A stretch of 63,809 nt of DNA, counting the filler, from Myxococcota bacterium (GTDB lineage: Bacteria; Myxococcota; Myxococcia; Myxococcales; Myxococcaceae): the NCBI GenBank assembly GCA_049322255.1. It is 5 parts of 5 records of this genome, joined end to end, with 100 filler letters (N's around TTAATTAATTAA, not from the genome) between each part and the next. Parts side by side here need not be neighbours in the genome. Positions count along the whole stretch, not along the records: positions 1 to 13,710 come from JBMORE010000111.1; 4 more parts are not named here. One strand, written 5' to 3'. The translations under genes were made by a program, and so were the position numbers. The stretch's first letter is position 1; each line of letters opens with the position of its first letter. Below are positions 1,421 through 14,143 of this stretch, piece after piece. Below the pieces are notes generated by a model. That model saw nothing but the letters and a program-made list of their open reading frames with translations. It did not search any database and was not told the DNA's origin.

Positions 1421-1969
1421 ATGAAGCCCCGTATCGAGACGGCGGAGGTTCTTTCGTTCAGGCTCAAGGTGCCTCCGGAGGAGATTCGGCGCCTGCCCCA
1501 GCAAGTCCGTGAGCTGCGGCTGACCGTTGATACCGATGAGGGAGATTTCATGGTTTCGGTGGAGGATGCCGACAGCTACCTGCGCTTTCGCCCCATCGGC
1601 GCCGAGGCGATGCTCACCGAAATCTTCCTCAACAACGACGAGCGCGGCCACTTCTTCCAGAACGTCCTGGGCGCCTTGATGGTGCGCTTCGGAGGCGACC
1701 TTCATATCCGCCTGGCTTGGAACACCCCCGAGCGCAACGCCCACGGTGACTTCACCGAGGTGCTCATCGCCCGCGGCGTCACCACTTACCCCGGCCTGAC
1801 CAACCTCCTCTCCGCGTCTCCTCCGACCGTGGGCAGCGAGGGGCAAGTGGCGGTGGAGGCAGAAGAGGTGGAAACGACCACCCCGCTGGAAAAAGAGGTG
1901 CGCGAGCTGCTCGCCAAGGCCCGCGCCGACTGGGACGAGTACCAGCGGCTGAAGCGACGGAAGGAGTAA
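1421..1969 (+). CDS. hypothetical protein (182 aa)
   Basis: ATG 17 nt after spoVR stop (MKPRIETAEVLSFRLK...), coding-like composition; no recognised motif. Confidence 0.75.
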   Translation: MKPRIETAEVLSFRLKVPPEEIRRLPQQVRELRLTVDTDEGDFMVSVEDADSYLRFRPIGAEAMLTEIFLNNDERGHFFQNVLGALMVRFGGDLHIRLAWNTPERNAHGDFTEVLIARGVTTYPGLTNLLSASPPTVGSEGQVAVEAEEVETTTPLEKEVRELLAKARADWDEYQRLKRRKE

Positions 1970-2101
1970 GGTCTAAAAGGACTACTTAGGGCTTGACGGG
2001 ACGGAAAGACTCACCGTCAGTTCCGGGTAGTCAGCTTCTTACATTGAAGCGGAGTCCTGCCTTCGTTCACACTTCGGGTTTGTCTTGAGGAGGGGCCTCC
2101 C

Positions 2102-5100
2102 ATGGACACCAAAAGACGCAGCGGGCGGCGGTGGCTCCTGGTTGTATTCGCCGCCGTTGGCACTCTCGCCGCCTGCCAGCGCAAGCCAGCCAAGCCGCCT
2201 GGGGAACTCGAAATTGGACCGGGTGGGGCTGTGCTTGCGGCTGCATCGGCGCTCCCTGGCTCTTCCCCGACAGCCCAACTTGTCGTCCCGAAGAGCGCGC
2301 TGGAGGCGAAAACTCGCATCACCGCTCGGGAGCTTCCTCACCCAATTCCGGGCGCTGTCGGGCCTGTCGTCGAGATGGGGCCGCACGGCATGCAGTTTCA
2401 AGAGCCGGTGCGCATTCGCTTCAAGCCGGACACGACGAAATTTCCTCGAGGGGTGGCGCCCAGCAGCTTGCGGGTAGCGACGCTGGCCGGCGGCAAGTGG
2501 CGGCTTTTGCCGACGTCGTTCCCAGAGCCCGGCGTCATCGAAGGCGAGACGACTCACTTCAGCCTCTTTGGCCTGGTGTCTCCCTGCCTCGTCAGCGGGA
2601 TTGGCGTGGACTTCCCCCTAGCCAACTGCCCGAACCTCAACCCGAGGATTCAAGCCTCCGCCCCGGTGGCGCTGTGGGCAATGGGCGGCAGGCAGACGTT
2701 GCTCATCGCCGTCGAGGCAGCTCCCGGCGCCTCGGCCTCGAGCGTCACGCTCACTATCTCCGGCCTTCGGCCCAGTTTGACGTACCACCTATTGCGGGAC
2801 GGCCAGGGGCCTCCTGTCGCGGTGCTGGCGGATGCCTCGGGGCAGCTGCAGACTTCCGAGAGTACGGCGGGCCGCCGTTACTTGGTGTTGATGGCGACGC
2901 ACGGCAGCATCGACCTCGATGCCTCCAGCTGCGTGCCTCCGCTGGGCATCTGGACTTCGGCGACCTCCACCTGTGCCCTGACGCAGGACGTGACGGCCCC
3001 GCCCATCTACATCCAGCAAGACGGCCTCACCCTCGACTGCAAAAACCCCGTCACGGGCCAAAACCACACCATTGGTGGCGCCACCCGCCAGTCTGCGGGC
3101 GTCTCGGTCATCACGCGTACGAACGTCAAGGTGCGCAACTGCAACATCACCAACGTCGACTTCGGGTTTTTGGCGTCGGTGGCGCACGGGCTGTTCATTT
3201 CAAAGGTCGATGTCTCGGCGCCTCCCAGCGCGCCGGGAGATGTCGCCTTCTCGCTGCACGGCAATGGCATCACCGTCCAGGACAGCAGCGTCGACGGCTT
3301 CGACTTCGGCGTCCGGACCGACAACATGGACGCGCTGACGCTGAAAAACACCACCTTCAAGACACTCTCGACGGCCACGGAGCTGGCCTTCGTCACCAAC
3401 CTTTTCCTCGAGGACGTCTCCGTCGACGGCTCGCTGTTCGCCCCAGGGGCGTCTGCTCCAGTGGGGGCCGTCATCCTCGACAACTCTCCGGGCGCCACCC
3501 TCAAGCGTGTGTCCGTCACGCAGGCCTCGGCGTTCGATAGCGCCATCGCCGCCGTTTTCGACTCCGATGCCACAGTGGAGGCGGCTTTCGTCTCGGGCGC
3601 AAACAGAGGCATTCGACTGGATGGCCCGGGGCCAAGCCGGGTGGAGTCCAGCACCCTCACCAGCAACCAGGAAGGCTTGGTGCTTCTGGGCGGCACCACC
3701 GTCGTCTTCCACAACAACCTCTTCGGCAACAGCACTCGGCAGGTGTACGCCGCGGGCGCCATCGAGCTGTCCGACACCCGGGCCGCCTCGCCGACGTTCC
3801 AGCAAGGCAACTATTGGGGGCGCTCCTGTCCGGGGACGCTTTTCTTGGCTGGCGTCGACTCCAGCCGCGCCGATGTCGTCGACAGCTACCCCTACGGACA
3901 AGCATCCGCGTGGACGGCGGGCGGGACGCCCGGCTGCACCTCTCCTCCGGTATTGGCCGCGCCCCTCCTCACTTCGCCAACTCCGGGTGCCCTGCTGGCC
4001 ACGGCGACGCCGACGTTTGCCGGGACAGCAGCCGCTGGAGCCACCGTCGAAGTGCGCGAGGGTGGAGTCACCCACGGAAGCGCAACGGCGGACTCCGCGG
4101 GGCGATTCGAAGTCGTCCCCACGGTGTCCCTTTCCGAAGGGGCGCACACCGTCGTCGCCAAGGCGTCGCTGGGTGGGGCGGTGTCGGCTGACTCGGCGCC
4201 GCTGACATTCACCATCGACACCCTCGCCCCCTCCGCGCCTGTCCTCGTCTTTCCCACCCCCGGCATAACCCTTGCCGAGTCTTCGCTTTTGGGGGTGGGG
4301 ACTGCCGAGGCGAATGCCCGCGTGCACCTCGAGGAGGGCGCCGCGCTGTTGGTGGATGGAATGGCCGATGCCGCAGGGCAATTCTCCCTTCGAGTCCCCT
4401 GGCTTGCGGCCGGTGCACACACCCTCATTGCCCGGGCCACGGACGCCGCGGGAAATACCTCGCCCGCAAGCGCACCTGTCAGCTTCACGGTGACGAGGGC
4501 GCCGACGGGTGTTGCCGGCCACTTGAAGCTGACGTCGGTGTACGACGCACCGGACGCCTTCGAGCCCAACGCGGGCGAAAGCAATACCCTGCATCTCGAA
4601 GGTACGATGACGAAGCCCAGCGGCGGAGGCGCCTCCACGTACTTCCTGCTTCTTGCGCGCCGGGTGTACTCGCAGGCGACGGGCGCCCTCGTCCGGACGC
4701 TTTCTGCACAACAGCAACTGACTTTTGGCTCCGGCAACTCCCCCGCCGCCTTCAGCCACGACATTGGCTGGGACGGCAAAGACACCCAGGGCGTGGTGGT
4801 GCCGCAGGGAGTCTATGCCTCCGTCACCACGATGCGCGCGGTGAGACAGAGGGCGGGCGGTGGCAACAGCAGCGGCTGCCTGTCGACGACTTCGACGGGA
4901 GGCTGCGTCTTCGACGAAGTGGACGTCGTCACCACGGTGATGCTGGTGGCGACGCCTGTTGTCCTTCGCCCTCCGGCCGCGGCGCCGGGGACAAGTCTCA
5001 TCGAGGTGGCGCAAGCAGTCGTGCCCACCGCCCAAGGCGTCCTCATCATCCCCGAGAGCGCCTTCCGGGCGGCGCTCGCTTCGGGACACCCTGCACCGGC

Positions 5101-8100
5101 GGATGACGCCGCCAAGTCGCTGGCGGTCGATGTGGCCGGGAAGGGCAACGACTCCGCGGCGCTCGGCTGGGTGGGGGCGCTACACACCGTGGGAGGGCCG
5201 CAAAGCTTCAGCGGCCAAGTCTTCATCGTGGCGCGAAACCCGAAGACTTCCGGGGCCGGGCGCTTCGTGGAGACGGATGACTACTTCGTCGCCGGGGTGA
5301 AGCTTTCTGGAAGCGCGCCGTGGATTGGCGCCGTCGAAGGCGTGGCGGTGAGTAGCATCGGGCCCGCGCCAGCTTCCGGGTGCTGTGGAGAGCCGAAGAA
5401 GTGCGCGCAAACCAGTCCGGGCGGGCCGGGAGGGTGCGGGCCCGCAGGGCTTTGCCTCTCCTATGACACGAAAGAGGTGCTGCCGGGAGGTGTGCCCCAG
5501 GGACCAACGGAGTTGGCGTTCTACGGCTCTCCCGAAGCCAGTGGCACCATTCCGTCCCTCAGCTACTCATGCCTGGCCAAAGTCTTTCCGTTGTGCGCCC
5601 AGGCGCAGCCGCTGTGCGACCCGGCTGACTACCTGACGCCCGGAAATGGCGGGGGTGGTGGAGGCAGCCAAGCCTGTGGCCCCGCCGAGCCGCGCATCGC
5701 GCCTCCATTGGGTCCCCCGGTGGCTGACTCATGCAAGTACGGGCTGTGGGAAGACCCTCCTCCTGAGTGCGGTGGGTGGAGCCCCAACTTCGGAGCGCTG
5801 ACGTGGAGCGCCAGCGGGCTGCCTCCCAGTTGCGCGTTGATGCAAACCATCGAGGGCTCCGAACTCTGCAACCCCCACAGCGCGGAGCTGAGGGAAGCCA
5901 GAAACTTTCAAATGAAGTTCAACGTCCTGACGAGCGGCTGCGCCGGCCAGGCGGGGTTGGTCAGCAGCCAACTCGGGGGAAAGTGCTGCGGCGCCAACTG
6001 CGTCTGCGGGGAGGTCGCGCTCGGACAGAAAGGCACTGCGACTGTAAAGGCCGACGTCTGCACCGAGTGCGACAACACGGGAGCGACAGGACAGTGCAGG
6101 GAGTTTGCGGAGAGGGTGTGGTTCGACTCGAACCTGGCGGCGAATGATACCGGCGACGGAACAACAGTAGAAGTCCTCTGCCATTGCCATTGGGTCGACG
6201 AGCAATGCATATGCCAGGGTACCGACTGCGCTGGCGTGACTTGTCCGGCCAAGCCGGTCGTAACAAATGAGGTCTCGCCGGTTCCGGATGAGCAAGGGCT
6301 GAACACCGGTACTCCGCCTGAGCCAGAAGCTCCACCCGAAACCAATCCAAGCCAAGTAGCGCAAAAAGGTCCCGGAGGCGCTGGCGACCCAATTCTTCTT
6401 GGGGACGGCAGCTTCGACATCCAGCAAACTGACCTGTCTTTCGATGGACCAGTGCGTCCCCTGGAATTCCGACGGGCGTACAACTCACGCGGCGGGGGCC
6501 GAAGCACGCTCGGAAGCAACTGGACCCATAACTGGGACGTCCGGCTCGTCGTGCTGCGCGAGGGCATCGCACCTTCGTGGGTGCCCGCCTACTGCTTCGG
6601 AACGCGGCTGGAGCCTACGTGTCTGTTGCTGCACGAGGGAGATCGAGGACCCCAACTCTTCTACTCCGAATACGGAACGGGGCTCTTCCTGCCTCAAGCC
6701 GGGAGCACAGACACTGTCGCCGTCGTCAAGCCGCAGGGCGGCTGGGCGCTGCGCCGTGCTGATGGCTCGATGCTTCTTTTCGATGCCGACGGCTACCTCC
6801 GGCAGGACAGAGACCGCTTCGGCAACGGGTTTACCATCGACTACGAGAAGACGCCGCTGGGCGAGTTGTATGCGCACCACTGCGCCGAGTCGGAGGTGTA
6901 CTCGGACAAGTGCGCTGTCTTGGCGTACCTTGTGGGCGATGGCGCACGGCCCGATGCCGTCTCGCCGGCCTGGCAAGTCACCGCCTCCACCTACCCGATT
7001 TCAAGTTTGCTGGATTCGGCCGTTCAGCAGCGGCTTCTCTACGCCCGCGAGTACTTTCTCGCCTTGCTGCGGACGGGCCCGCGCGTCCGCCAAGCTTTCG
7101 GCGCCCACGCCCAGCGGCCAAGCCAGATACGCGACGACACCGGCAGGACTCTCCAATTCACCTACTACCAGGCCCCGTCGGCGAGCTTCTTCTCCAGCCA
7201 AGGCATCGAGGGGATGCCGCACGTCGAGCTGCTCCATGAGGTGCGGGGGCCCGCCGGTACGAAGGCCGAGTTTTCCTACAGGAAGCCGGCCAACCATCCC
7301 CCTCTGCTCGGCGAGCAGTTCCTCGTTAAGGTGACGCGGCAAGACTCTCCGTCGGCGAGCCACGTCGACATCCTCGCGGCGCCGGCTCGGACCATCGACT
7401 TCGCCTACCAGTGGCCAGAGAATTCCGCACCGTCGTACTCACCTCAAAACGAGCAGGACGTCTACAGCCGCTACCTCGACTACTACGCCACCTTCCGCGG
7501 CTGCGCGTACACGACGCAGCCCGGCCCCTGCGCCAAGGGGACACCGCAACTCACCATCCTGCCTGGAAACCCGGCACTCCTGGCGCGGGAGGCCGCCAAC
7601 GAGTACGTCTCCGACGTCGCCGACAACATCATCCAGGTGACGACGTCCGGCAAAGTCGAGTCGGAGACTCGCTACGACGCCGACCCCTTCTCCATCGAAT
7701 TCGACCGCGTGTTGGCCCAGCGCTACGGCGCCAGCCAAGCGACACAGGACGTGACGAAGCTGCCGCCGGATGTCTTGGCCTTCAACTGGCAGAGCCAGCT
7801 GCCGCGGATGGTGATGGAGTACCGGCCCGCAGGCATCGCCTCCGGAGGCGACGAGACGGACGCGCTCCTTCCCGCCGCCATCAAGAGTCGCTACCCCGTG
7901 GAGGATGGCTCGAATTTCCACCCGCCGGAGTTCCATGCGGGGCCGAATACTGCCTCCAGCTTGGCCTGCCGCTTCGACTTGGTCGACGTACGACGGAAGC
8001 TGCTCCCGGGCTACCGGAAGTCGCTCCTCTACTTCGAGGCGGCGTCAATGCCCGGTCCCGATGATGGATTGAAACGGTCGGCGCTCTCTTGCGAGGCGCT

Positions 8101-11100
8101 GGCCTTCGCCCAGGTGGCCGACCCGACGCACAACGAGCTCGTCAGCAAGATAGAGGCAGACTCCTCGACCAGCGATAAGAGGGATGCGCTGGTTTCTCGC
8201 GTCATCGGTGGACGCAAGCGAATCGCCAAGGACGCAAACCGCATCTGTGCCTGGAGCAAGGTCATCGACCGCGATGGAGATACCCGCTACTTCGGCCTTA
8301 ACTACCGCGGACAAGTGCTGGTCGATGCGCTCGCGGAACGCAGCGGCGGCTACCTCTTCAAGGAACGCGTCTACAACGCCGACGGGAATGTCATTCAGGA
8401 CAGGCGCCCCACGCGCGCGCCGTCGTGGAGCGCGACCGAGGGCTACACAAGCTTCGAGTACCACGACAATGAAACCGGGTTCGTCATCGACATGACCAAG
8501 TTGACGTACCCCTTCTGGGTGCGCCGCCAGCACCTGCTGCGAGTCGAGGAGCGCCCCAAGGGCGGCTCGGTGACGGATGTCGCCGAGGGGCCCGCGCTGG
8601 CGGTGGGCCAAAGCGTGGGACGTTTCCAGCAGTACAGCTACGAGCCCTTCTTCCAGCAAGTCCTCTCGTTCCAAGAAGGAGCGCTGGGGCCGCAGTCGTC
8701 CACCATCCACCGAAGCGTCGTCTACGACTACGACTACCAGGAACTGGACCCCGACGCGCCCCTGGGAGACTCGAAGTCGCTCTTGCCGGTGTACTTGGCG
8801 CTGGCGCCCTTCGGTTTTGCCTCGCTGCCGGCAGTGCCCTTCGCCAAGGTAGACCTCAACGGAGACGGGGTGCTGGGCTTTGCGCACCCTCCTGGCTTAG
8901 AGCACCTCAAGGCCCGCGGCGCGGTGGTGCGCGTCACCCAGCGGCAAACCCCGACTTCGTCCGACAGCCTCGTCTACACCTATACGTGGGCACCGCACGG
9001 GCAGCCTGCCAGCATCAAAGGCCCGGACGGCAGCACCGTCCGCTTCGACTATTACTCGCTGGCCGCGCCGTATGGGAATGCAGCACCTCCCGCGTCAGCC
9101 GATGTCTCTTCTTCCAACCGAGGTTTCCTCGGGCGAATTCAGGTGCGCAGGCTGGATGAAAGCTACCCGCTCGCCTATGGGCCATCTGCGGCGCCCTGCC
9201 AGGGACTCCGAGGGCCGTACCAATGGGTGCTGAGTGGAAACTGCTCTTCGCCGTCGACGGAGTTGGCCGGCTTGGGGCTGCACCAGGCGGCCATCGACCA
9301 AATACTCGCTGCCTCGGGGGCTGCGGGGGCCTCCGAAGCGCTGACGACGGCCTTCAGCTACTCGGTGCTGGGGAAGGTGCGCCACACCTGGCTTCCCACC
9401 GGGACGATGCACGCGGTGCGCGACGCCGACGGCCGGGAGAGAGTCGTCACCGATGTGCTGGGCAACCAGACGGAGCATCAGTACGACGTCTACGGCTTCG
9501 CCATCCGTACGCTTCGAAAAGACGAGCTGGGAAACCCGTTGGGGGACACCGAGCGCCGCTTCGATGACGAAGGACAGTTGCTTTTCGAGTGCACCGAAAC
9601 CGAAGCAGGCGGGTGTAACGGGACTCTCGCTTCGCCCAACGGAGTCGCCTCCGAATACGCCTACACCCCGGAGGGGCAGCTTTTCCAAGCCAAGGACAGC
9701 GAAGGCCTCGTTACCCAGCACTCCTACGACGAGAGGAAGCTGCCGAGCCAAACCACGCTGCGGCCCTCGTCGGCCACGGCAGCCAGCCGGAGGGTTGCGT
9801 ACGCCTACAACGACGACGGCAACATCGAGCGCGTCGAGTACGGGCTGTCTTCAGCGCAGCCGCTCGAGCGGCTGGAAGAATTTTTCGTCTACGACGGCCT
9901 GCGGCGGCTGAAGGAGTACGCCGACAAGCGCGGCTACCGCTGGCAGCTGGGTTACTCCAGCCGGGACGTCCTTTCGAGGTATAAGCAGGACGCGGCGGCC
10001 TATGGCTTTCCGGGCGGTGCGCCGGCGTGGGAGACGTACCTCGCGTATGACGTCTTCGGGCGCCTGGTGGAAAGGGGGGACAACGGCCTTTCCACGACGA
10101 AGTACTCCTTGACGAAGGAGGGGCGCGTCTTCGCCGTCGAAGCCACTGGTTTGGCGAAGTCCTTCACCACCTATGACTTCCAGGGGCGGCCGTTGTGGAG
10201 TGTGGACGGGGCGGGCAACCAGAGTCTCTACACGTGGCGCCCGGCGCCGCACATCGAGACGGAAAGCAGCATTCGCATCGACGACACGGGCGCACGGGTA
10301 GCGACAAGCCTCGTCCGCACGTTGAATGCCCTCGGGCACCCGCTGGAGGAAACCGAAGGAGGCGGGGCGCAGACGCGCGCGTGGGTTTTCCGGCGTACTG
10401 CTGCGGGGTTTGTCCGGGAGGTAGTCAACCCCGAGGGCTTCCTCACCCAAGTGACGCGCAACTTCCTGGGCTGGCCGAAGGAGGTGAGGGAGGAGTCCTC
10501 TTCCGCGCCGGGCGGCTTCGAGATAGCGACGTACGAGTACGACTCCCGCGGGCAGGCGAAGCGGGTGGTGGACCCAAGCGGGTACGTCACCCAGATATTC
10601 CGCGACGAGTTGGGCGACGTGCGAAGGCGGGTGGTGGAGGGAAGCCCGACGGTGGACGTCTTTTTCGACTACGACAGCTTGGGGAGGCTGTCGAAGCGGA
10701 CGAGTGGCGTCTCCACCATTGGCTTCGAGTACGACGTCCGGGGCGACGCGGTGGTGGAGAAGCTGCTTCCCGGCGGGCAACTGTTGTCGGAGAGGGCCTT
10801 CGACACGTTGGGCCGAGTCGTCAGCGCCTCCAACTACAACCCCGCCCTCTCCTGGCTGGCGGAAGGCGCCCGGACGGTGCGCCAGACTCTCTCCTACGAC
10901 GGCTTAGGAAGGGTGGCGACAGACGGTTTGCGGGTAGGCGGTGGTGCGTTGAGAGAGGTTTCCTCCGCCTGGAGCCTCTCGGCACAAAACACCTGGCAGC
11001 GGCAAAACGGCTACCTCCTGCCGGGCCCCTTCGCCTCGTCCAGCTGGACGCAGCACTTCGATGGGGTGGGCCGGCTGTCGGAAATGGACGTGCTGGGGCG

Positions 11101-13207
11101 TGGGACGTCCTTCGCCTGGCAAGGGGAGTGGTACCTGGGCAGGACGCAGCGCCTCTCAAACAAGCCCAGCCCATTTCGAGAGAAGCGCACGTTGGACGCG
11201 CTGGGGCAGCTTTTCACCCTGGAGTACCGCGCCCTCGACGTCTTTCCCGGTGGGCAGCCGGTGAATGCGGCGGAGGGCGCCTCCTACTGCGGAGGCAGCT
11301 GGAGCGCTGGCGACTGCGCGGGGCCGCTGCTTGGAATTGAAACGTTGCGCGACAGAATGGGGCGGGTGGCGTCGCTCCAGTGGGGCTATGGCCACCCGGT
11401 GTTGAATGCCGGCGGCTCGCGGGTGCCGGCGACACACCCAAAGCCCTGGAGAGGTTACGCGTATGACGAGCTCTCCCGGTTGACGAAGACGTGGGAGCAC
11501 CCAGGCGTCGGCAGCGCAGTGTCGACGTCGGGCCTTTTCACCCACTTCGTGACGACGCAACAGGTGCAGCAACTGGGAAGCGCTTCGGACGCGTGGAGAT
11601 ACCAGCGAGAGGCGACGGTGGGCGGGACGCTGGCCATTTCCCACGAAGTCACCAGCCAGACGAGGTGGCAGGGCAGCCGGGGAAGTGGCCACCAACTACA
11701 GACGGCCACGGTGGATGGGCAGGGACGCATTCTGTCCCACGACGCCGAGGGGCGCCTTGCCAGCGATGGAGTGCGCACCTTCGAGTACGACGCCCGGGGC
11801 CAGCTGGCGGTGGTGCGGGCGCCGACTGGGGCAGTGCAGGAGGCCTACGCCTACGACGACTTTGGGCGAATGGTGGCCGTCTTCACCGGCAGCGGCGTCG
11901 ACGAAAGCTTCCTCTACGACGGCGTGCACATGGTGGCCTCCTTCGACGGCCAGGGAGGCTTGGCGTGGGAGGCAAGGTGGGGCCCCGGCATCGACTCTCT
12001 CGTCGGGTGGAGAGACGTGGCGGGCGGCACAGGCACCCATGTGCCCTTGGTGGACAGCCGCAACTCGGTGGTGGCCAGTTGGAGTGACGCCGACGGGAAG
12101 CTGACGGAACGGGCCGAGTACACGCCCGAGGGGCGCGTCCTGCGCCGAGACGCCGCGGGAAGTCTCCTGTGCGAAGAAGAAGGCACCGGCCAGGTATGTC
12201 CCGGCGTTGCTGGAATGCCCTTTAGCTTCGCCTCGGCCTGGAAGTCGGACAGAAGCGGCCTCGTCTACATGAGAAACCGCTGGTACTCGCCTGAATTGGG
12301 AGAATTCCTCTCCCACGACGCCATCGGCTACCGCGACTCCTTCAACCTCTACGCCTACGTCGCTTTCGACCCCATCAACAAGCGCGATCCATTTGGATTG
12401 GTTGGAGTCGAGGTGCGTGCAGGCGCGCAGGCCACCGAAGCAATCGTGGCGCAGCAGGTGCTGAAGCAGTTGAGCACGCAGGCCCCGACGGTGGTGTCCA
12501 AGGTCGCACCGGCTGCGGTTGCAACAGCCGCTGGCTCAGGTTCAGCTGCCGCTGTTGGCACGACGGCGGCGGCTGGTTGGGGAGCGGCGGCGTTGAGCGT
12601 GCTCCGAGGGCTCGTCTCGAGTCCGGCCCTCATCCTCAATGTGCTGCTCTACACAGGTAGCCAAGACTGCACCACTGGCGCGGGATGTGGATCGCCGCTG
12701 TACACTCCAGGGCCGAGCCCGGCTCCGACGCCGATTGAGGAACCGAACGCTTGTTATGGCCCATGCGGTGTCCCAGCATCGTTCCCCGCTGGGCGGTCGC
12801 CGGCGCCGATCGAAGCTGCCAAACCGCCCAAACCGTCGCTACCACCGGGAATGACGGAGCGTGATCTCGGTGAACTTCTGAAGTGGCCCAAGTCTCGTAA
12901 CCCTGGAGGGCCGCCGCCAACGACTGAGGAACTCGCCAAGAAAGGTGTGACGAAAGAAATTCTGGAGAAGTGGAAGAAGTTCTACGAGGAGATCGCGAAG
13001 CAGTTCCCTGAGAATCCTTCAGCCGGAAAGCGCGTTCCCTACCTCGATGAATTGATCAAGAAGATGACCGGTGGGACATCTATGAACGCTGCCCCAGGGC
13101 TCGTGGGGATTCCTGGGTTGCCATCATCAACGGGACTCAGTTCGAGACCGAGTGGCGCCGGACCCGCACCGTCGGTGTGTCACAAGTCGCTCGCAGGCTG
13201 TCGTTAA
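2102..13207 (+). CDS. giant Rhs/YD-repeat polymorphic toxin-like protein with lipoprotein signal (3701 aa)
   Basis: GAGGAGG upstream; lipobox LAAC (Cys25); ZU5-like segment (GPHGMQFQEPVRIRF...TTHFSLF); beta-helix repeats; two Ig-like repeats (ARATDAAGNTS); FlgD-like WDGKD; DUF6531-like GDPILLGDG...FRRAYNS...LGSNWTHNWD; many YD repeats; Rhs core YMRNRWYSPELGEFLSHD...NLYAYVAFDPINKRDPFGL. Confidence 0.92.
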   Translation: MDTKRRSGRRWLLVVFAAVGTLAACQRKPAKPPGELEIGPGGAVLAAASALPGSSPTAQLVVPKSALEAKTRITARELPHPIPGAVGPVVEMGPHGMQFQEPVRIRFKPDTTKFPRGVAPSSLRVATLAGGKWRLLPTSFPEPGVIEGETTHFSLFGLVSPCLVSGIGVDFPLANCPNLNPRIQASAPVALWAMGGRQTLLIAVEAAPGASASSVTLTISGLRPSLTYHLLRDGQGPPVAVLADASGQLQTSESTAGRRYLVLMATHGSIDLDASSCVPPLGIWTSATSTCALTQDVTAPPIYIQQDGLTLDCKNPVTGQNHTIGGATRQSAGVSVITRTNVKVRNCNITNVDFGFLASVAHGLFISKVDVSAPPSAPGDVAFSLHGNGITVQDSSVDGFDFGVRTDNMDALTLKNTTFKTLSTATELAFVTNLFLEDVSVDGSLFAPGASAPVGAVILDNSPGATLKRVSVTQASAFDSAIAAVFDSDATVEAAFVSGANRGIRLDGPGPSRVESSTLTSNQEGLVLLGGTTVVFHNNLFGNSTRQVYAAGAIELSDTRAASPTFQQGNYWGRSCPGTLFLAGVDSSRADVVDSYPYGQASAWTAGGTPGCTSPPVLAAPLLTSPTPGALLATATPTFAGTAAAGATVEVREGGVTHGSATADSAGRFEVVPTVSLSEGAHTVVAKASLGGAVSADSAPLTFTIDTLAPSAPVLVFPTPGITLAESSLLGVGTAEANARVHLEEGAALLVDGMADAAGQFSLRVPWLAAGAHTLIARATDAAGNTSPASAPVSFTVTRAPTGVAGHLKLTSVYDAPDAFEPNAGESNTLHLEGTMTKPSGGGASTYFLLLARRVYSQATGALVRTLSAQQQLTFGSGNSPAAFSHDIGWDGKDTQGVVVPQGVYASVTTMRAVRQRAGGGNSSGCLSTTSTGGCVFDEVDVVTTVMLVATPVVLRPPAAAPGTSLIEVAQAVVPTAQGVLIIPESAFRAALASGHPAPADDAAKSLAVDVAGKGNDSAALGWVGALHTVGGPQSFSGQVFIVARNPKTSGAGRFVETDDYFVAGVKLSGSAPWIGAVEGVAVSSIGPAPASGCCGEPKKCAQTSPGGPGGCGPAGLCLSYDTKEVLPGGVPQGPTELAFYGSPEASGTIPSLSYSCLAKVFPLCAQAQPLCDPADYLTPGNGGGGGGSQACGPAEPRIAPPLGPPVADSCKYGLWEDPPPECGGWSPNFGALTWSASGLPPSCALMQTIEGSELCNPHSAELREARNFQMKFNVLTSGCAGQAGLVSSQLGGKCCGANCVCGEVALGQKGTATVKADVCTECDNTGATGQCREFAERVWFDSNLAANDTGDGTTVEVLCHCHWVDEQCICQGTDCAGVTCPAKPVVTNEVSPVPDEQGLNTGTPPEPEAPPETNPSQVAQKGPGGAGDPILLGDGSFDIQQTDLSFDGPVRPLEFRRAYNSRGGGRSTLGSNWTHNWDVRLVVLREGIAPSWVPAYCFGTRLEPTCLLLHEGDRGPQLFYSEYGTGLFLPQAGSTDTVAVVKPQGGWALRRADGSMLLFDADGYLRQDRDRFGNGFTIDYEKTPLGELYAHHCAESEVYSDKCAVLAYLVGDGARPDAVSPAWQVTASTYPISSLLDSAVQQRLLYAREYFLALLRTGPRVRQAFGAHAQRPSQIRDDTGRTLQFTYYQAPSASFFSSQGIEGMPHVELLHEVRGPAGTKAEFSYRKPANHPPLLGEQFLVKVTRQDSPSASHVDILAAPARTIDFAYQWPENSAPSYSPQNEQDVYSRYLDYYATFRGCAYTTQPGPCAKGTPQLTILPGNPALLAREAANEYVSDVADNIIQVTTSGKVESETRYDADPFSIEFDRVLAQRYGASQATQDVTKLPPDVLAFNWQSQLPRMVMEYRPAGIASGGDETDALLPAAIKSRYPVEDGSNFHPPEFHAGPNTASSLACRFDLVDVRRKLLPGYRKSLLYFEAASMPGPDDGLKRSALSCEALAFAQVADPTHNELVSKIEADSSTSDKRDALVSRVIGGRKRIAKDANRICAWSKVIDRDGDTRYFGLNYRGQVLVDALAERSGGYLFKERVYNADGNVIQDRRPTRAPSWSATEGYTSFEYHDNETGFVIDMTKLTYPFWVRRQHLLRVEERPKGGSVTDVAEGPALAVGQSVGRFQQYSYEPFFQQVLSFQEGALGPQSSTIHRSVVYDYDYQELDPDAPLGDSKSLLPVYLALAPFGFASLPAVPFAKVDLNGDGVLGFAHPPGLEHLKARGAVVRVTQRQTPTSSDSLVYTYTWAPHGQPASIKGPDGSTVRFDYYSLAAPYGNAAPPASADVSSSNRGFLGRIQVRRLDESYPLAYGPSAAPCQGLRGPYQWVLSGNCSSPSTELAGLGLHQAAIDQILAASGAAGASEALTTAFSYSVLGKVRHTWLPTGTMHAVRDADGRERVVTDVLGNQTEHQYDVYGFAIRTLRKDELGNPLGDTERRFDDEGQLLFECTETEAGGCNGTLASPNGVASEYAYTPEGQLFQAKDSEGLVTQHSYDERKLPSQTTLRPSSATAASRRVAYAYNDDGNIERVEYGLSSAQPLERLEEFFVYDGLRRLKEYADKRGYRWQLGYSSRDVLSRYKQDAAAYGFPGGAPAWETYLAYDVFGRLVERGDNGLSTTKYSLTKEGRVFAVEATGLAKSFTTYDFQGRPLWSVDGAGNQSLYTWRPAPHIETESSIRIDDTGARVATSLVRTLNALGHPLEETEGGGAQTRAWVFRRTAAGFVREVVNPEGFLTQVTRNFLGWPKEVREESSSAPGGFEIATYEYDSRGQAKRVVDPSGYVTQIFRDELGDVRRRVVEGSPTVDVFFDYDSLGRLSKRTSGVSTIGFEYDVRGDAVVEKLLPGGQLLSERAFDTLGRVVSASNYNPALSWLAEGARTVRQTLSYDGLGRVATDGLRVGGGALREVSSAWSLSAQNTWQRQNGYLLPGPFASSSWTQHFDGVGRLSEMDVLGRGTSFAWQGEWYLGRTQRLSNKPSPFREKRTLDALGQLFTLEYRALDVFPGGQPVNAAEGASYCGGSWSAGDCAGPLLGIETLRDRMGRVASLQWGYGHPVLNAGGSRVPATHPKPWRGYAYDELSRLTKTWEHPGVGSAVSTSGLFTHFVTTQQVQQLGSASDAWRYQREATVGGTLAISHEVTSQTRWQGSRGSGHQLQTATVDGQGRILSHDAEGRLASDGVRTFEYDARGQLAVVRAPTGAVQEAYAYDDFGRMVAVFTGSGVDESFLYDGVHMVASFDGQGGLAWEARWGPGIDSLVGWRDVAGGTGTHVPLVDSRNSVVASWSDADGKLTERAEYTPEGRVLRRDAAGSLLCEEEGTGQVCPGVAGMPFSFASAWKSDRSGLVYMRNRWYSPELGEFLSHDAIGYRDSFNLYAYVAFDPINKRDPFGLVGVEVRAGAQATEAIVAQQVLKQLSTQAPTVVSKVAPAAVATAAGSGSAAAVGTTAAAGWGAAALSVLRGLVSSPALILNVLLYTGSQDCTTGAGCGSPLYTPGPSPAPTPIEEPNACYGPCGVPASFPAGRSPAPIEAAKPPKPSLPPGMTERDLGELLKWPKSRNPGGPPPTTEELAKKGVTKEILEKWKKFYEEIAKQFPENPSAGKRVPYLDELIKKMTGGTSMNAAPGLVGIPGLPSSTGLSSRPSGAGPAPSVCHKSLAGCR

Positions 13208-13231
13208 ACTTTATGCGGTGGTGGTGAGATC

Positions 13232-13513
13232 ATGAAAGTCACCGTGCGGCTCCAGAACAAAGGCGATAGGGAGATCGGACTCGAAGTCGAGCCCTGGGGC
13301 GAGTACTACCGTATTGCACCGGGAGCACAGGTTGACTTAGTCATCGCGGGTCCCATCGTCGGTGAGCCAAATGCAGATCCACAATCAAATGGAGTTATCG
13401 ATCTACAGTACGAAACAGACCTGATTACGGTCTACGGATGGCGAAGTGCCGAAATCGAAGTCGTTGGTGCGACGATGGCGCCATGGCCGACAGGTACCGG
13501 CGAGAAGAAGTGA
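13232..13513 (+). CDS. small protein, candidate immunity protein for the Rhs C-terminal toxin
   Basis: 93 aa, 24 nt after Rhs stop, lower GC like the Rhs tip; beta-rich with LEVEPWG...YGW motifs; immunity role inferred from position. Confidence 0.65.
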   Translation: MKVTVRLQNKGDREIGLEVEPWGEYYRIAPGAQVDLVIAGPIVGEPNADPQSNGVIDLQYETDLITVYGWRSAEIEVVGATMAPWPTGTGEKK

Positions 13514-13710
13514 CTCCCAGATTGTCCGCGAGCCGAGCGGCGGGACGCCGGGCCCCATCGAGACGCCCGGCCTTGGTGCGGGGTGTGGTGTTCGCGCAAA
13601 GCCAGAACGGTCGTGGATCCGCGGTTGAAAGGCTGCGAGAAGCTGGTCGAGGGCGGCGAGCGAGCACACGTCTCGTGACGATGTGCGGGGGCATCAGCAG
13701 CGAGCATGGA

Positions 13711-13810
13711 NNNNNNNNNNNNNNNNNNNNNNNNNNNNNNNNNNNNNNNNNNNNTTAATTAATTAANNNNNNNNNNNNNNNNNNNNNNNNNNNNNNNNNN
13801 NNNNNNNNNN
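13711..13810. other. assembly spacer (Ns with TTAATTAATTAA linker)
   Basis: N run with all-frame stop linker at 13755-13766. Confidence 0.98.
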
Positions 13811-13814
13811 CATT

Positions 13815-14066
13815 CCGAGTGCCCGAAGCACCGTCAAAATGGTCGGGCGGCACCGAATAGGCTCGGGGGCGTCGTCGAAGTCGATTCGGCGGCGCCGGAG
13901 TGCTTGGAAGCGGCGTCAAAGTGGTTCGGGCGGCACCGGATAGGCTCGGGGGCGTCGTCGAAGTCGATTCGGCGGCGCTGGAGTGCTTGGAAGCGGCGTC
14001 AAAGTGGTTCGGGCGGCACCGGAGAGGCTCGGGGGCGTCGTCGAAGTCGATTCGGCGGCGCTGGAA
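13815..14066. repeat. 83-bp tandem repeat (~3 copies) with ~21-bp substructure
   Basis: GCTCGGGGGCGTCGTCGAAGTCGATTCGGCGGCG recurs at 13861, 13944 and 14027. Confidence 0.92.
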
Positions 14067-14143
14067 GTAATACGATGCTTCATCAAGGCTGTTGTGGCGA
14101 TGCCTTGGCCCAATGATTCACCGTCCGGTGGTTTGGGCTCGCC

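Follow-up and report, generated by a model that had tools for sequence, protein, structure and literature searches.

What kind of system is a giant Rhs protein that carries a lipoprotein signal, and how would such a protein reach another cell? The question is raised by a gene for 3701 amino acids (aa), and a 93-aa gene behind it, in a stretch of 63,809 nucleotides from a member of the Myxococcaceae (assembly GCA_049322255.1; the whole stretch is called the window below). By every feature testable here, in sequence and in structure models, the protein is an Rhs polymorphic toxin. Our results point to a stand-alone antibacterial toxin that is probably exported by Sec, displayed on the cell surface or on vesicles, and delivered by contact. 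The features are collected in Table 1.

Cargo and candidate immunity protein

Identity to homologues spans the shell and ends at residue 3433, the last residue of the DPFGL motif (3429-3433). The 268 aa behind this motif are the tip. When the tip was compared by BLAST with the family tips that could be cut out, no match was detected. The same architecture with swapped tips, which the first-pass annotation of this DNA had proposed to look for, was found among the homologues: their C-termini vary past DPxGL, and known toxin or Hint domains (Ntox10, Ntox5, Ntox21, AHH, Tox-HNH-HHH, Tox-HNH-EHHH and PT-HINT) were detected in seven of the 15 homologues scanned. Family tips are 174-450 aa long (median 293, n = 77; P0068 was left out because it was mis-cut).

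The tip has three parts, namely a hydrophobic and Pro-rich part, a DUF4951-like domain and a 45-aa tail. A 19-aa segment with a mean hydropathy of at least 1.5 is present in 31 of 77 family tips (median position, 29% of tip length), and the hydrophobic stretch is likely to be a membrane-crossing aid. The tip profile matched PDB 2MMB with an E value of 3.5e-8, and the fold comparison gave a modest match (Z 6.0, root-mean-square deviation (rmsd) 4.7, 81 aligned residues). DUF4951-like homologues 42-48% identical to the tip pass the PF16309 cut-off (28.9-37.8 bits). The ESM Atlas gave DUF4951 at 0.77 for the tip, which is a lead only, and placed the 93-aa protein in unnamed clusters. A DUF4951-like end is also found behind a Hint domain in P0041 (E 1.5e-5). 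The 45-aa tail is absent from the non-Rhs homologues L104, L106 and L107. In L106 (2-418) and L107 (3-524), the DUF4951-like domain of a non-Rhs carrier stands behind a region that contains Cys residues (TPCCYQTQ..ACYQL) and matches neither NCBIfam nor another Pfam family.

The tip had been described as lower in GC over its ~268 aa. This holds for the last 380 nucleotides of the gene and for the 93-aa gene (55% GC for the DUF4951 part and the 93-aa gene), whereas residues 3434-3574 have 67% GC, as the shell does. The GC content at third codon positions falls across the whole tip, from 0.82 to 0.57-0.67.

DUF4951 was found in two other genomes out of 350, and the tip profile in two metagenome contigs. 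In four of four other loci, all on non-Rhs backbones, a homologue of the 93-aa gene stands immediately behind the DUF4951-like domain; three of these loci are closely related, and the four do not count as independent events. The predicted complex of the tip and the 93-aa protein scored 0.75, and the best of three controls 0.02; the mark applied to this score is reached by 116 of 157 solved pairs and by 2 of 215 mismatched pairs. At least 46% of contacts are common to the runs, and the partner pLDDT is at least 73. In the model, the EPWGEY segment of the partner lies on the conserved NPSAxxR of the tip. Since the 93-aa protein has no signal or membrane segment in its sequence, the target is probably cytoplasmic. 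A shared-word homologue search with this protein returned only itself, and a HMMER search returned 38 homologues. Other family tips are trailed by different, tightly coupled small genes, for example DUF4265, Tdi1_C, LRR and HEAT genes. The swapped tips, the conserved pairing and the complex model support the earlier proposal of an encapsulated polymorphic toxin with a cognate immunity gene, and the assignment of the DUF4951-like tip and the 93-aa protein as a toxin/immunity pair is well supported by sequence and modelling.

Table 1. Features of the toxin locus, in window coordinates; residue numbers (res) are those of the 3701-aa protein.
Feature	Position	Strand	Basis or detail
Giant Rhs/YD polymorphic toxin gene, 3701 aa	2102..13207	+	Reading of the open reading frame; domain profiles
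Predicted Sec/SPII signal peptide, lipobox LAA-C25	2102..2176	+	Sequence, heuristic
ZU5-like domain, res 59-107	2276..2422	+	PF00791, E 9e-6, 26.3 bits (cut-off 21)
Right-handed beta-helix (NosD-like), res 308-573	3023..3820	+	PF13229, PF05048
Two bacterial Ig domains and a weak FlgD-Ig-like domain, res 634-956	4001..4969	+	Pfam profiles
Family-defining N-domain, res 957-1427 (470 aa)	4970..6382	+	Alpha/beta part, 25-Cys region (1101-1390), Pro-rich linker
YD shell, res 1428-3433 (2006 aa), DUF6531 (1428-1486) at start	6383..12400	+	Pfam, including RHS repeats PF05593
Rhs aspartyl-protease core, R3393, D3406, D3429; predicted cleavage after L3433	12278..12400	+	Conserved alignment columns
Pre-toxin part of tip, Ala/Gly-rich hydrophobic stretch (res 3483-3518) and Pro-rich linker	12401..12823	+	
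DUF4951-like helical domain, putative toxin, res 3575-3656	12824..13069	+	PF16309, E 4.5e-5; conserved W, FY, NPSAxxR
Tail of 45 aa after the putative toxin domain, ends CHKSLAGCR	13070..13204	+	Beyond where homologous domains stop
93-aa EPWG-motif protein, predicted cytoplasmic immunity protein	13232..13513	+	Co-occurrence and complex model
84-bp repeat, probable cause of contig break	13584..13667	.	Identical copy on C22

Architecture and clade of the giant Rhs protein

The first-pass annotation had described a lipobox at Cys25, adhesin-like modules, a DUF6531-like start, a YD shell and an Rhs core ending in DPFGL, with a 93-aa gene behind. All of these were recovered. The two genes have the lengths and coordinates described, the lipoprotein signal was returned by heuristic signal classification, the modules by ZU5, beta-helix and Ig matches in Pfam and NCBIfam, and the shell and core by Pfam, TIGR03696 and a C-terminal model. 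The LAAC lipobox is preceded by a basic N-region and then a hydrophobic stretch, as judged by our own heuristic and not SignalP; a lipobox-like Cys is also present in the close relatives P0002, P0003 and P0007. In the Ig region, Big_13/Big_6 matched residues 634-790 and FlgD_ig matched 883-906 weakly. The ZU5-like domain is possibly an autoproteolytic or spacer module, and the beta-helix would be a stalk or adhesin. The block of residues 25-956 is common only to P0002, P0003, P0004 and P0007 among the first 30 homologues listed. Since the block is absent from most clade members, which begin at the equivalent of residue 957, it is optional.

The N-domain (957-1427) gave no Pfam, NCBIfam or PDB match. 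Its model is confident in part (pLDDT 70, pTM 0.47); Foldseek returned nothing at E<=0.001, with VIA as the best match (Z 3.3), which does not in itself show a new fold. No fold of teneurins or bacterial teneurin-like proteins (TLPs) was matched by this model, which excludes the region 1480-2900, where an FN-plug could lie. In the first half of the shell, about 870 aa (positions 6800-9400) matched no Pfam family, and the first 1007 aa (6380-9400) matched no PDB sequence. Modelling of the shell covered residues 2901-3701, and this part matches Rhs, teneurin and Tc shells (8QJB: Z 31.4, rmsd 2.7, 405 aligned residues). The core matched TIGR03696 at residues 3371-3433 with 58 bits (cut-off 32.5). 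Its first motif is DAIG rather than DPxG, and its Arg-to-Asp spacing equals that of R2103/D2116 in BiTLP. The clade is defined by the Cys-rich domain and the 2006-aa shell, not by the optional ZU5/beta-helix/Ig block.

A search with residues 950-3440 returned 83 proteins, of which 68 besides the query scored at least 580 bits; the next score dropped to 105. Most clade members have 2700-3000 aa. Among named homologues, the closest comes from a Myxococcales bacterium and has no spoVR next to it. Named carriers belong to the Myxococcales, Bradymonadales, Nannocystaceae, Acidobacteriota (three), Anaerolineae, a betaproteobacterium and Nonomuraea. Within the family of the host, the clade was found in 20 of 208 genomes and in six of 51 genera; in the phylum sample it was found in 17 of 401 genomes, all of the same family. 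It was not found in the genera g13 (0/21), g16 (0/18), g22 (0/8) and g63. Viral contigs contained no clade member, and plasmids only a weak DUF6531 match. The frame of the family gene is interrupted upstream of the core in L036 and L069.

For 48 members judged to have a full N-terminus, the heuristic returned 19 SPII-like signals, 18 of the SPI/TM-like class and none in 11; on inspection by eye, about five of the 18 are lipoproteins and about five have no signal. The genes next to the family genes differ from locus to locus (transposases and an integrase are among them), and no conserved delivery gene was detected in the 37 neighbours scanned. The signal-less members L039 (Terriglobia) and L041 (Nonomuraea), which are both of the signal-less members with upstream DNA, have a MauE gene plus an AhpC/TSA thioredoxin-like gene directly upstream (L039:2714-3727, L041:8646-9944). 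These genes possibly encode a disulfide-forming or export partner of the Cys-rich domain. No evident immunity gene is present downstream in either.

In the literature searched, which held few subscription papers and no TLP genome lists, neither the clade nor a function of DUF4951 turned up, and the term DUF4951 occurred in none of the papers. The clade thus appears undescribed, as do its N-domain, the long shell and the pairing of DUF4951 with EPWG.

Export and delivery

We examined whether the protein depends on a known delivery apparatus. Loading as cargo of a type VI secretion system (T6SS) or of two-partner secretion, as in contact-dependent inhibition (CDI), by unlinked genes missed in assembly would agree with the DUF6531 shell start shared with T6SS Rhs proteins, which are also the best PDB sequence matches, and with the presence of VipB in four of the ten carriers outside the family of the host. 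However, VipB, PAAR, VgrG and Hcp were not found in the host genome (4.85 Mb, 66% GC, 99.6% complete), with a positive E. coli control, and VipB was found in none of the 19 other same-family carriers versus three of three controls. The lack of visible T6SS delivery genes, noted for the contig, thus held in the genome-wide search for these four markers. A Sec/lipoprotein signal does not fit cytoplasmic T6SS loading. As for CDI, no two-partner secretion or haemagglutinin Pfam match was detected in the protein, and the ShlB search was blank, though run without a positive control. Such cargo status is hardly credible.

Outer membrane exchange (OME) by TraAB, which had been put forward as a route by analogy with the SitA lipoprotein toxins, would suit the lipobox, the myxobacterial host, and the C-terminal toxin with its immunity gene, and TraB-like OmpA proteins are present in the host genome (202 and 241 bits). 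In contrast, traAB, when looked for, was not found there. TraA (TIGR04566) was absent from the host genome and over the cut-off in none of the 19 other carriers, versus three of three controls. TraB reached the cut-off of 700 in none of the 30 carriers versus three of three controls (950-1005 bits); divergent TraAB could score under these cut-offs (the best carriers reached 266-306 bits), and the assemblies are fragmented. The TraA of relatives matches host reading frames only through Cys repeats (~30% identity) and TraB at 27-32%, and there is no traA upstream of the two best TraB-like genes. In the accessible text of PMC5562445, SitA orthologues occur only in traAB genomes. Moreover, the tested members of g13, g16 and g22, genera without the clade, have TraA, some clade members have a type I or no signal peptide, and carriers occur in Acidobacteriota, Anaerolineae and Nonomuraea. 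Since neither TraA nor TraB was detected over its cut-off in the carriers tested, OME is not required. TraA is also missing from 18 of 24 sampled same-family genomes, and the mutual exclusion may reflect ancestry rather than function. Delivery by OME is largely refuted for the host genome, and we give it very little chance.

Two further explanations concern what the protein does. It is unlikely to be a prey-killing effector, whether passed at contact by a Tad-like (Kil-type) apparatus or directed at eukaryotes or at prey other than myxobacteria: kin must be at risk if there is a cognate immunity gene for the cytoplasm, non-predatory phyla carry the clade, and the review PMC10433427, as far as accessible, reports no evidence of myxobacterial Rhs in predation. 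These points stand against a third secretin beside FHA-like genes on contig C53, which we read as Tad-like, the adhesin modules, which could bind prey surfaces, and the origin of the read-set containing this DNA from a biofilm metagenome. A non-toxic surface adhesin or signalling protein in a teneurin-like role, with the tip as a relic and the 93-aa gene as a hitch-hiker, would account for the large adhesin block, for members such as L039 and L041, where no immunity gene is evident, and for the motility and predation phenotypes of M. xanthus rhs MXAN_6679 mutants (PMC10433427). However, the protease core is intact, the tips are freely swapped and include nuclease families, the tip/EPWG pairing is conserved, and the modelled interface falls on a conserved patch. 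We consider this role very unlikely.

The stand-alone, contact-delivered toxin can be pictured as follows. The protein would be exported by Sec, lipidated at the lipobox cysteine and folded with many disulfides in the periplasm. It would then arrive at the surface, most plausibly by way of the host's type II secretion system (T2SS), or leave on outer-membrane vesicles. Export of folded lipoproteins to the cell surface by a T2SS is established for pullulanase, and GspC, GspD, GspE and GspF scored over the cut-off in the host genome (a type II secretion cluster). A T2SS-linked Rhs has been proposed in 10.1101/2025.05.08.652813. The ZU5/beta-helix/Ig block would serve as an optional stalk or adhesin. 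Because the N-domain is conserved and no conserved neighbour gene is present, this domain probably binds the target and triggers release. The shell would enclose the 268-aa cargo, which would be severed by the core protease after DPFGL; Rhs cores self-cleave after such a motif. With the help of the hydrophobic pre-toxin stretch, the DUF4951-like domain may enter the cytoplasm of the target and would act there, with about an even chance, on nucleic acid. In the model, the 93-aa protein would shield kin by covering the NPSAxxR patch. The toxin is likely to be aimed at other bacteria, and probably at related myxobacteria.

Several results weigh against this interpretation. GspD was over the cut-off in only 25 of 30 carriers; it was not found in those from Acidobacteriota (three), Anaerolineae and Nonomuraea. 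Its presence in 20 of 20 same-family carriers comes with no comparison to non-carriers, and the co-occurrence is unspecific. In our judgement, a lipoprotein of ~380 kDa is a large T2SS substrate. With 11 of 48 members lacking a signal peptide by the heuristic, Sec export does not extend to every clade member. Given carriers without GspD and members without signal, export in the clade follows more than one route, and this suggests that the conserved N-domain and shell are the delivery unit. As for the pair, the PF16309 score of the tip itself (23.9-25 bits) is under the gathering cut-off of 27.3, and DUF4951 is a family without known activity. Of the three complex runs, one reached a score of 0.27, and each alignment consisted of three rows. 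No DUF4951-like gene was found nearby in eight of eight more distant EPWG-homologue loci; therefore, the EPWG family is not exclusive to this toxin, as expected of orphan immunity genes or of a family serving several toxins.

A further question was whether the cargo is fixed by a short motif. Family tips usually begin with xSxG[FLP]A; the tip of this protein does not. Its CHKSLAGCR tail shares 7 of 9 residues with the end of an unrelated Acidobacteriota tip (L037/P0021), and other tips end in KKGFSGP, KSGFSS, KCGFAG or KKGLADK. A leave-one-out matrix built from tip N-termini only gave motif scores for the two ends that were negatively correlated (Spearman -0.35, n = 77; p 0.0005 by permutation). 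Of the 27 tips that lack the N-motif, 8 had a C-terminal match above the 95% background level; of the 50 that have it, 4 did. When the C-terminal state was mapped on a FastTree tree, 10 changes were required, and shuffled states required no more; independent pairs gave 5.1 in the same direction and 0.3 in the other (median p 0.06; p 0.29 with a looser threshold). A first test with a hand-made pattern gave Fisher p 0.08, the tail of this protein scores 3.8, under the threshold of 4.24, and the idea was formed after inspection of the data. In the model of residues 2901-3701 the tail is disordered (pLDDT under 50), so that the model is silent on its docking. A motif at either end of the cargo is a weakly supported lead. 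In BiTLP, a disulfide links the cleaved C-terminal domain to the N-terminal plug (PMC13018210); this is a precedent for tethered cargo, and the two tail cysteines could possibly serve so. A bolder reading would make the protein a self-sufficient delivery machine, in which the Cys-rich N-domain recognises and breaches the target, the double-length shell holds ~30-kDa cargoes, and an x-S/K-x-G-F/L-A motif fixes the cargo from its N- or C-terminus (here the C-terminal tail), so that cargo could be packed and let out either way round; myxobacteria without OME and T6SS would have in it their chief weapon for kin discrimination. We hold this to be doubtful.

Cargo entry into the target by large signal-peptide Rhs and TLP toxins is called unresolved in PMC13018210 and PMC10433427. 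The clade is a clean test case for it, as one gene with an immunity gene in hosts without detected OME or T6SS genes. Its minimal form of ~2800 aa marks the essential parts, and it offers natural variants with a lipid anchor, a cleavable signal or no signal. Widespread EPWG proteins gain a putative role as immunity proteins.

Surroundings of the locus and known systems

Five contigs make up the window, namely C111, C112, C113, C114 and C138. The toxin-gene contig, C111, ends at 13710, and the gap at 13711-13810 and four other gaps consist of TTAATTAATTAA between N runs, a six-frame stop linker. Since the flanking parts are different contigs, what follows 13710 in the window probably does not adjoin the locus in the genome; orphan cassettes could still lie there. 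The 84-bp repeat has its identical copy at C22:190816-190899, directly after tRNA-Val(CAC) at a contig end, and may be the end of a mobile element. Upstream of the toxin gene no sigma-70 promoter or terminator match was detected, and repeats within the gene were not informative. Three tandem 83-nucleotide copies lie at 13843-14091 of the window, with copies also on contig C94. In sequencing run X1, the N-terminal and shell regions (4411-4897 and 10906-11009) were also present as another, diverged allele (depth about 23), and positions 12352-13613 formed one contig without differences; from the diverged allele, a co-occurring strain with another tip is possible. The host genome also contains a second, small Rhs core fragment (L111, C192:4091-4743), which is stop-interrupted, lies at a contig end and by BLAST is unrelated to the clade. 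MYXO-CTERM-like tails, by a pattern made for this analysis, are numerous in the genome. Cys-rich proteins at C53:163137-165515 and C47:14226-16022 carry such tails, have an N-terminal HExGHxxGLxH metalloprotease-like motif by eye and are not TraA.

Among known systems, the T6SS Rhs effectors (S. bongori Rhs 8QJB-D, RhsP 8H8A, RhsA 7Q97, Tse5 and Tse15) share the DUF6531 start, YD cocoon, aspartyl core, encapsulated tip and downstream immunity gene. However, they are loaded through PAAR/VgrG, have no signal peptide, and their shell is about 1060 aa (8QJB residues 360-1420) versus 2006 aa here. SitA has a lipobox, a C-terminal toxin, a downstream immunity gene and a myxobacterial host, whereas it is far smaller (SitA1-FLAG, 62.6 kDa), has no shell and needs TraAB (PMC5562445), which was not found in the carriers tested. 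Both identities were rejected, given no PAAR, VgrG or T6SS genes and no traAB in the host. PDB 2MMB, an uncharacterised Acinetobacter protein without assigned function, resembles the tip by profile and modestly by fold; here its domain is an Rhs tip with a paired EPWG gene, and thus DUF4951, a solved structure without function, gains a putative toxin role with a named antidote.

The TLPs (PMC13018210; PDB 9IFO) are closer. They are predicted Sec/SPII lipoproteins in Myxococcota with variable adhesin N-termini, a YD shell, PxxxxDPxG self-cleavage, a polymorphic C-terminal domain, an immunity gene and, in the accessible text, no obvious delivery machinery. Their defining parts are an FN-plug, NHL and a YD shell, and their C-terminal domains average ~15 kDa, whereas the present clade has no NHL match, a shell opened by DUF6531, a Cys-rich N-domain and a median cargo of 293 aa. 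Membership was rejected, as NHL (PF01436) is absent from the protein and from C111; PF01436 matches occur on another contig of the host genome and in four relatives. M. xanthus Rhs4 and Rhs5 have ~4000 aa and a signal sequence, kill kin after inactivation of OME and T6SS, and are presumed to be displayed on the surface (PMC10433427, PMC10047993). They lie on the Mx-alpha prophage in TraAB+/T6SS+ hosts, unlike the clade, which was not found in viral contigs. The toxin fits their description in size, signal and lack of OME and T6SS genes, a likeness by description and not by sequence. The route had been called unusual for an Rhs. This was overstated, as Sec/SPII YD-shell toxins without obvious delivery machinery (PMC13018210) and the signal-sequence Rhs4/5 (PMC10433427) have been described; a lipoprotein YD-toxin route without delivery genes is already a known concept.

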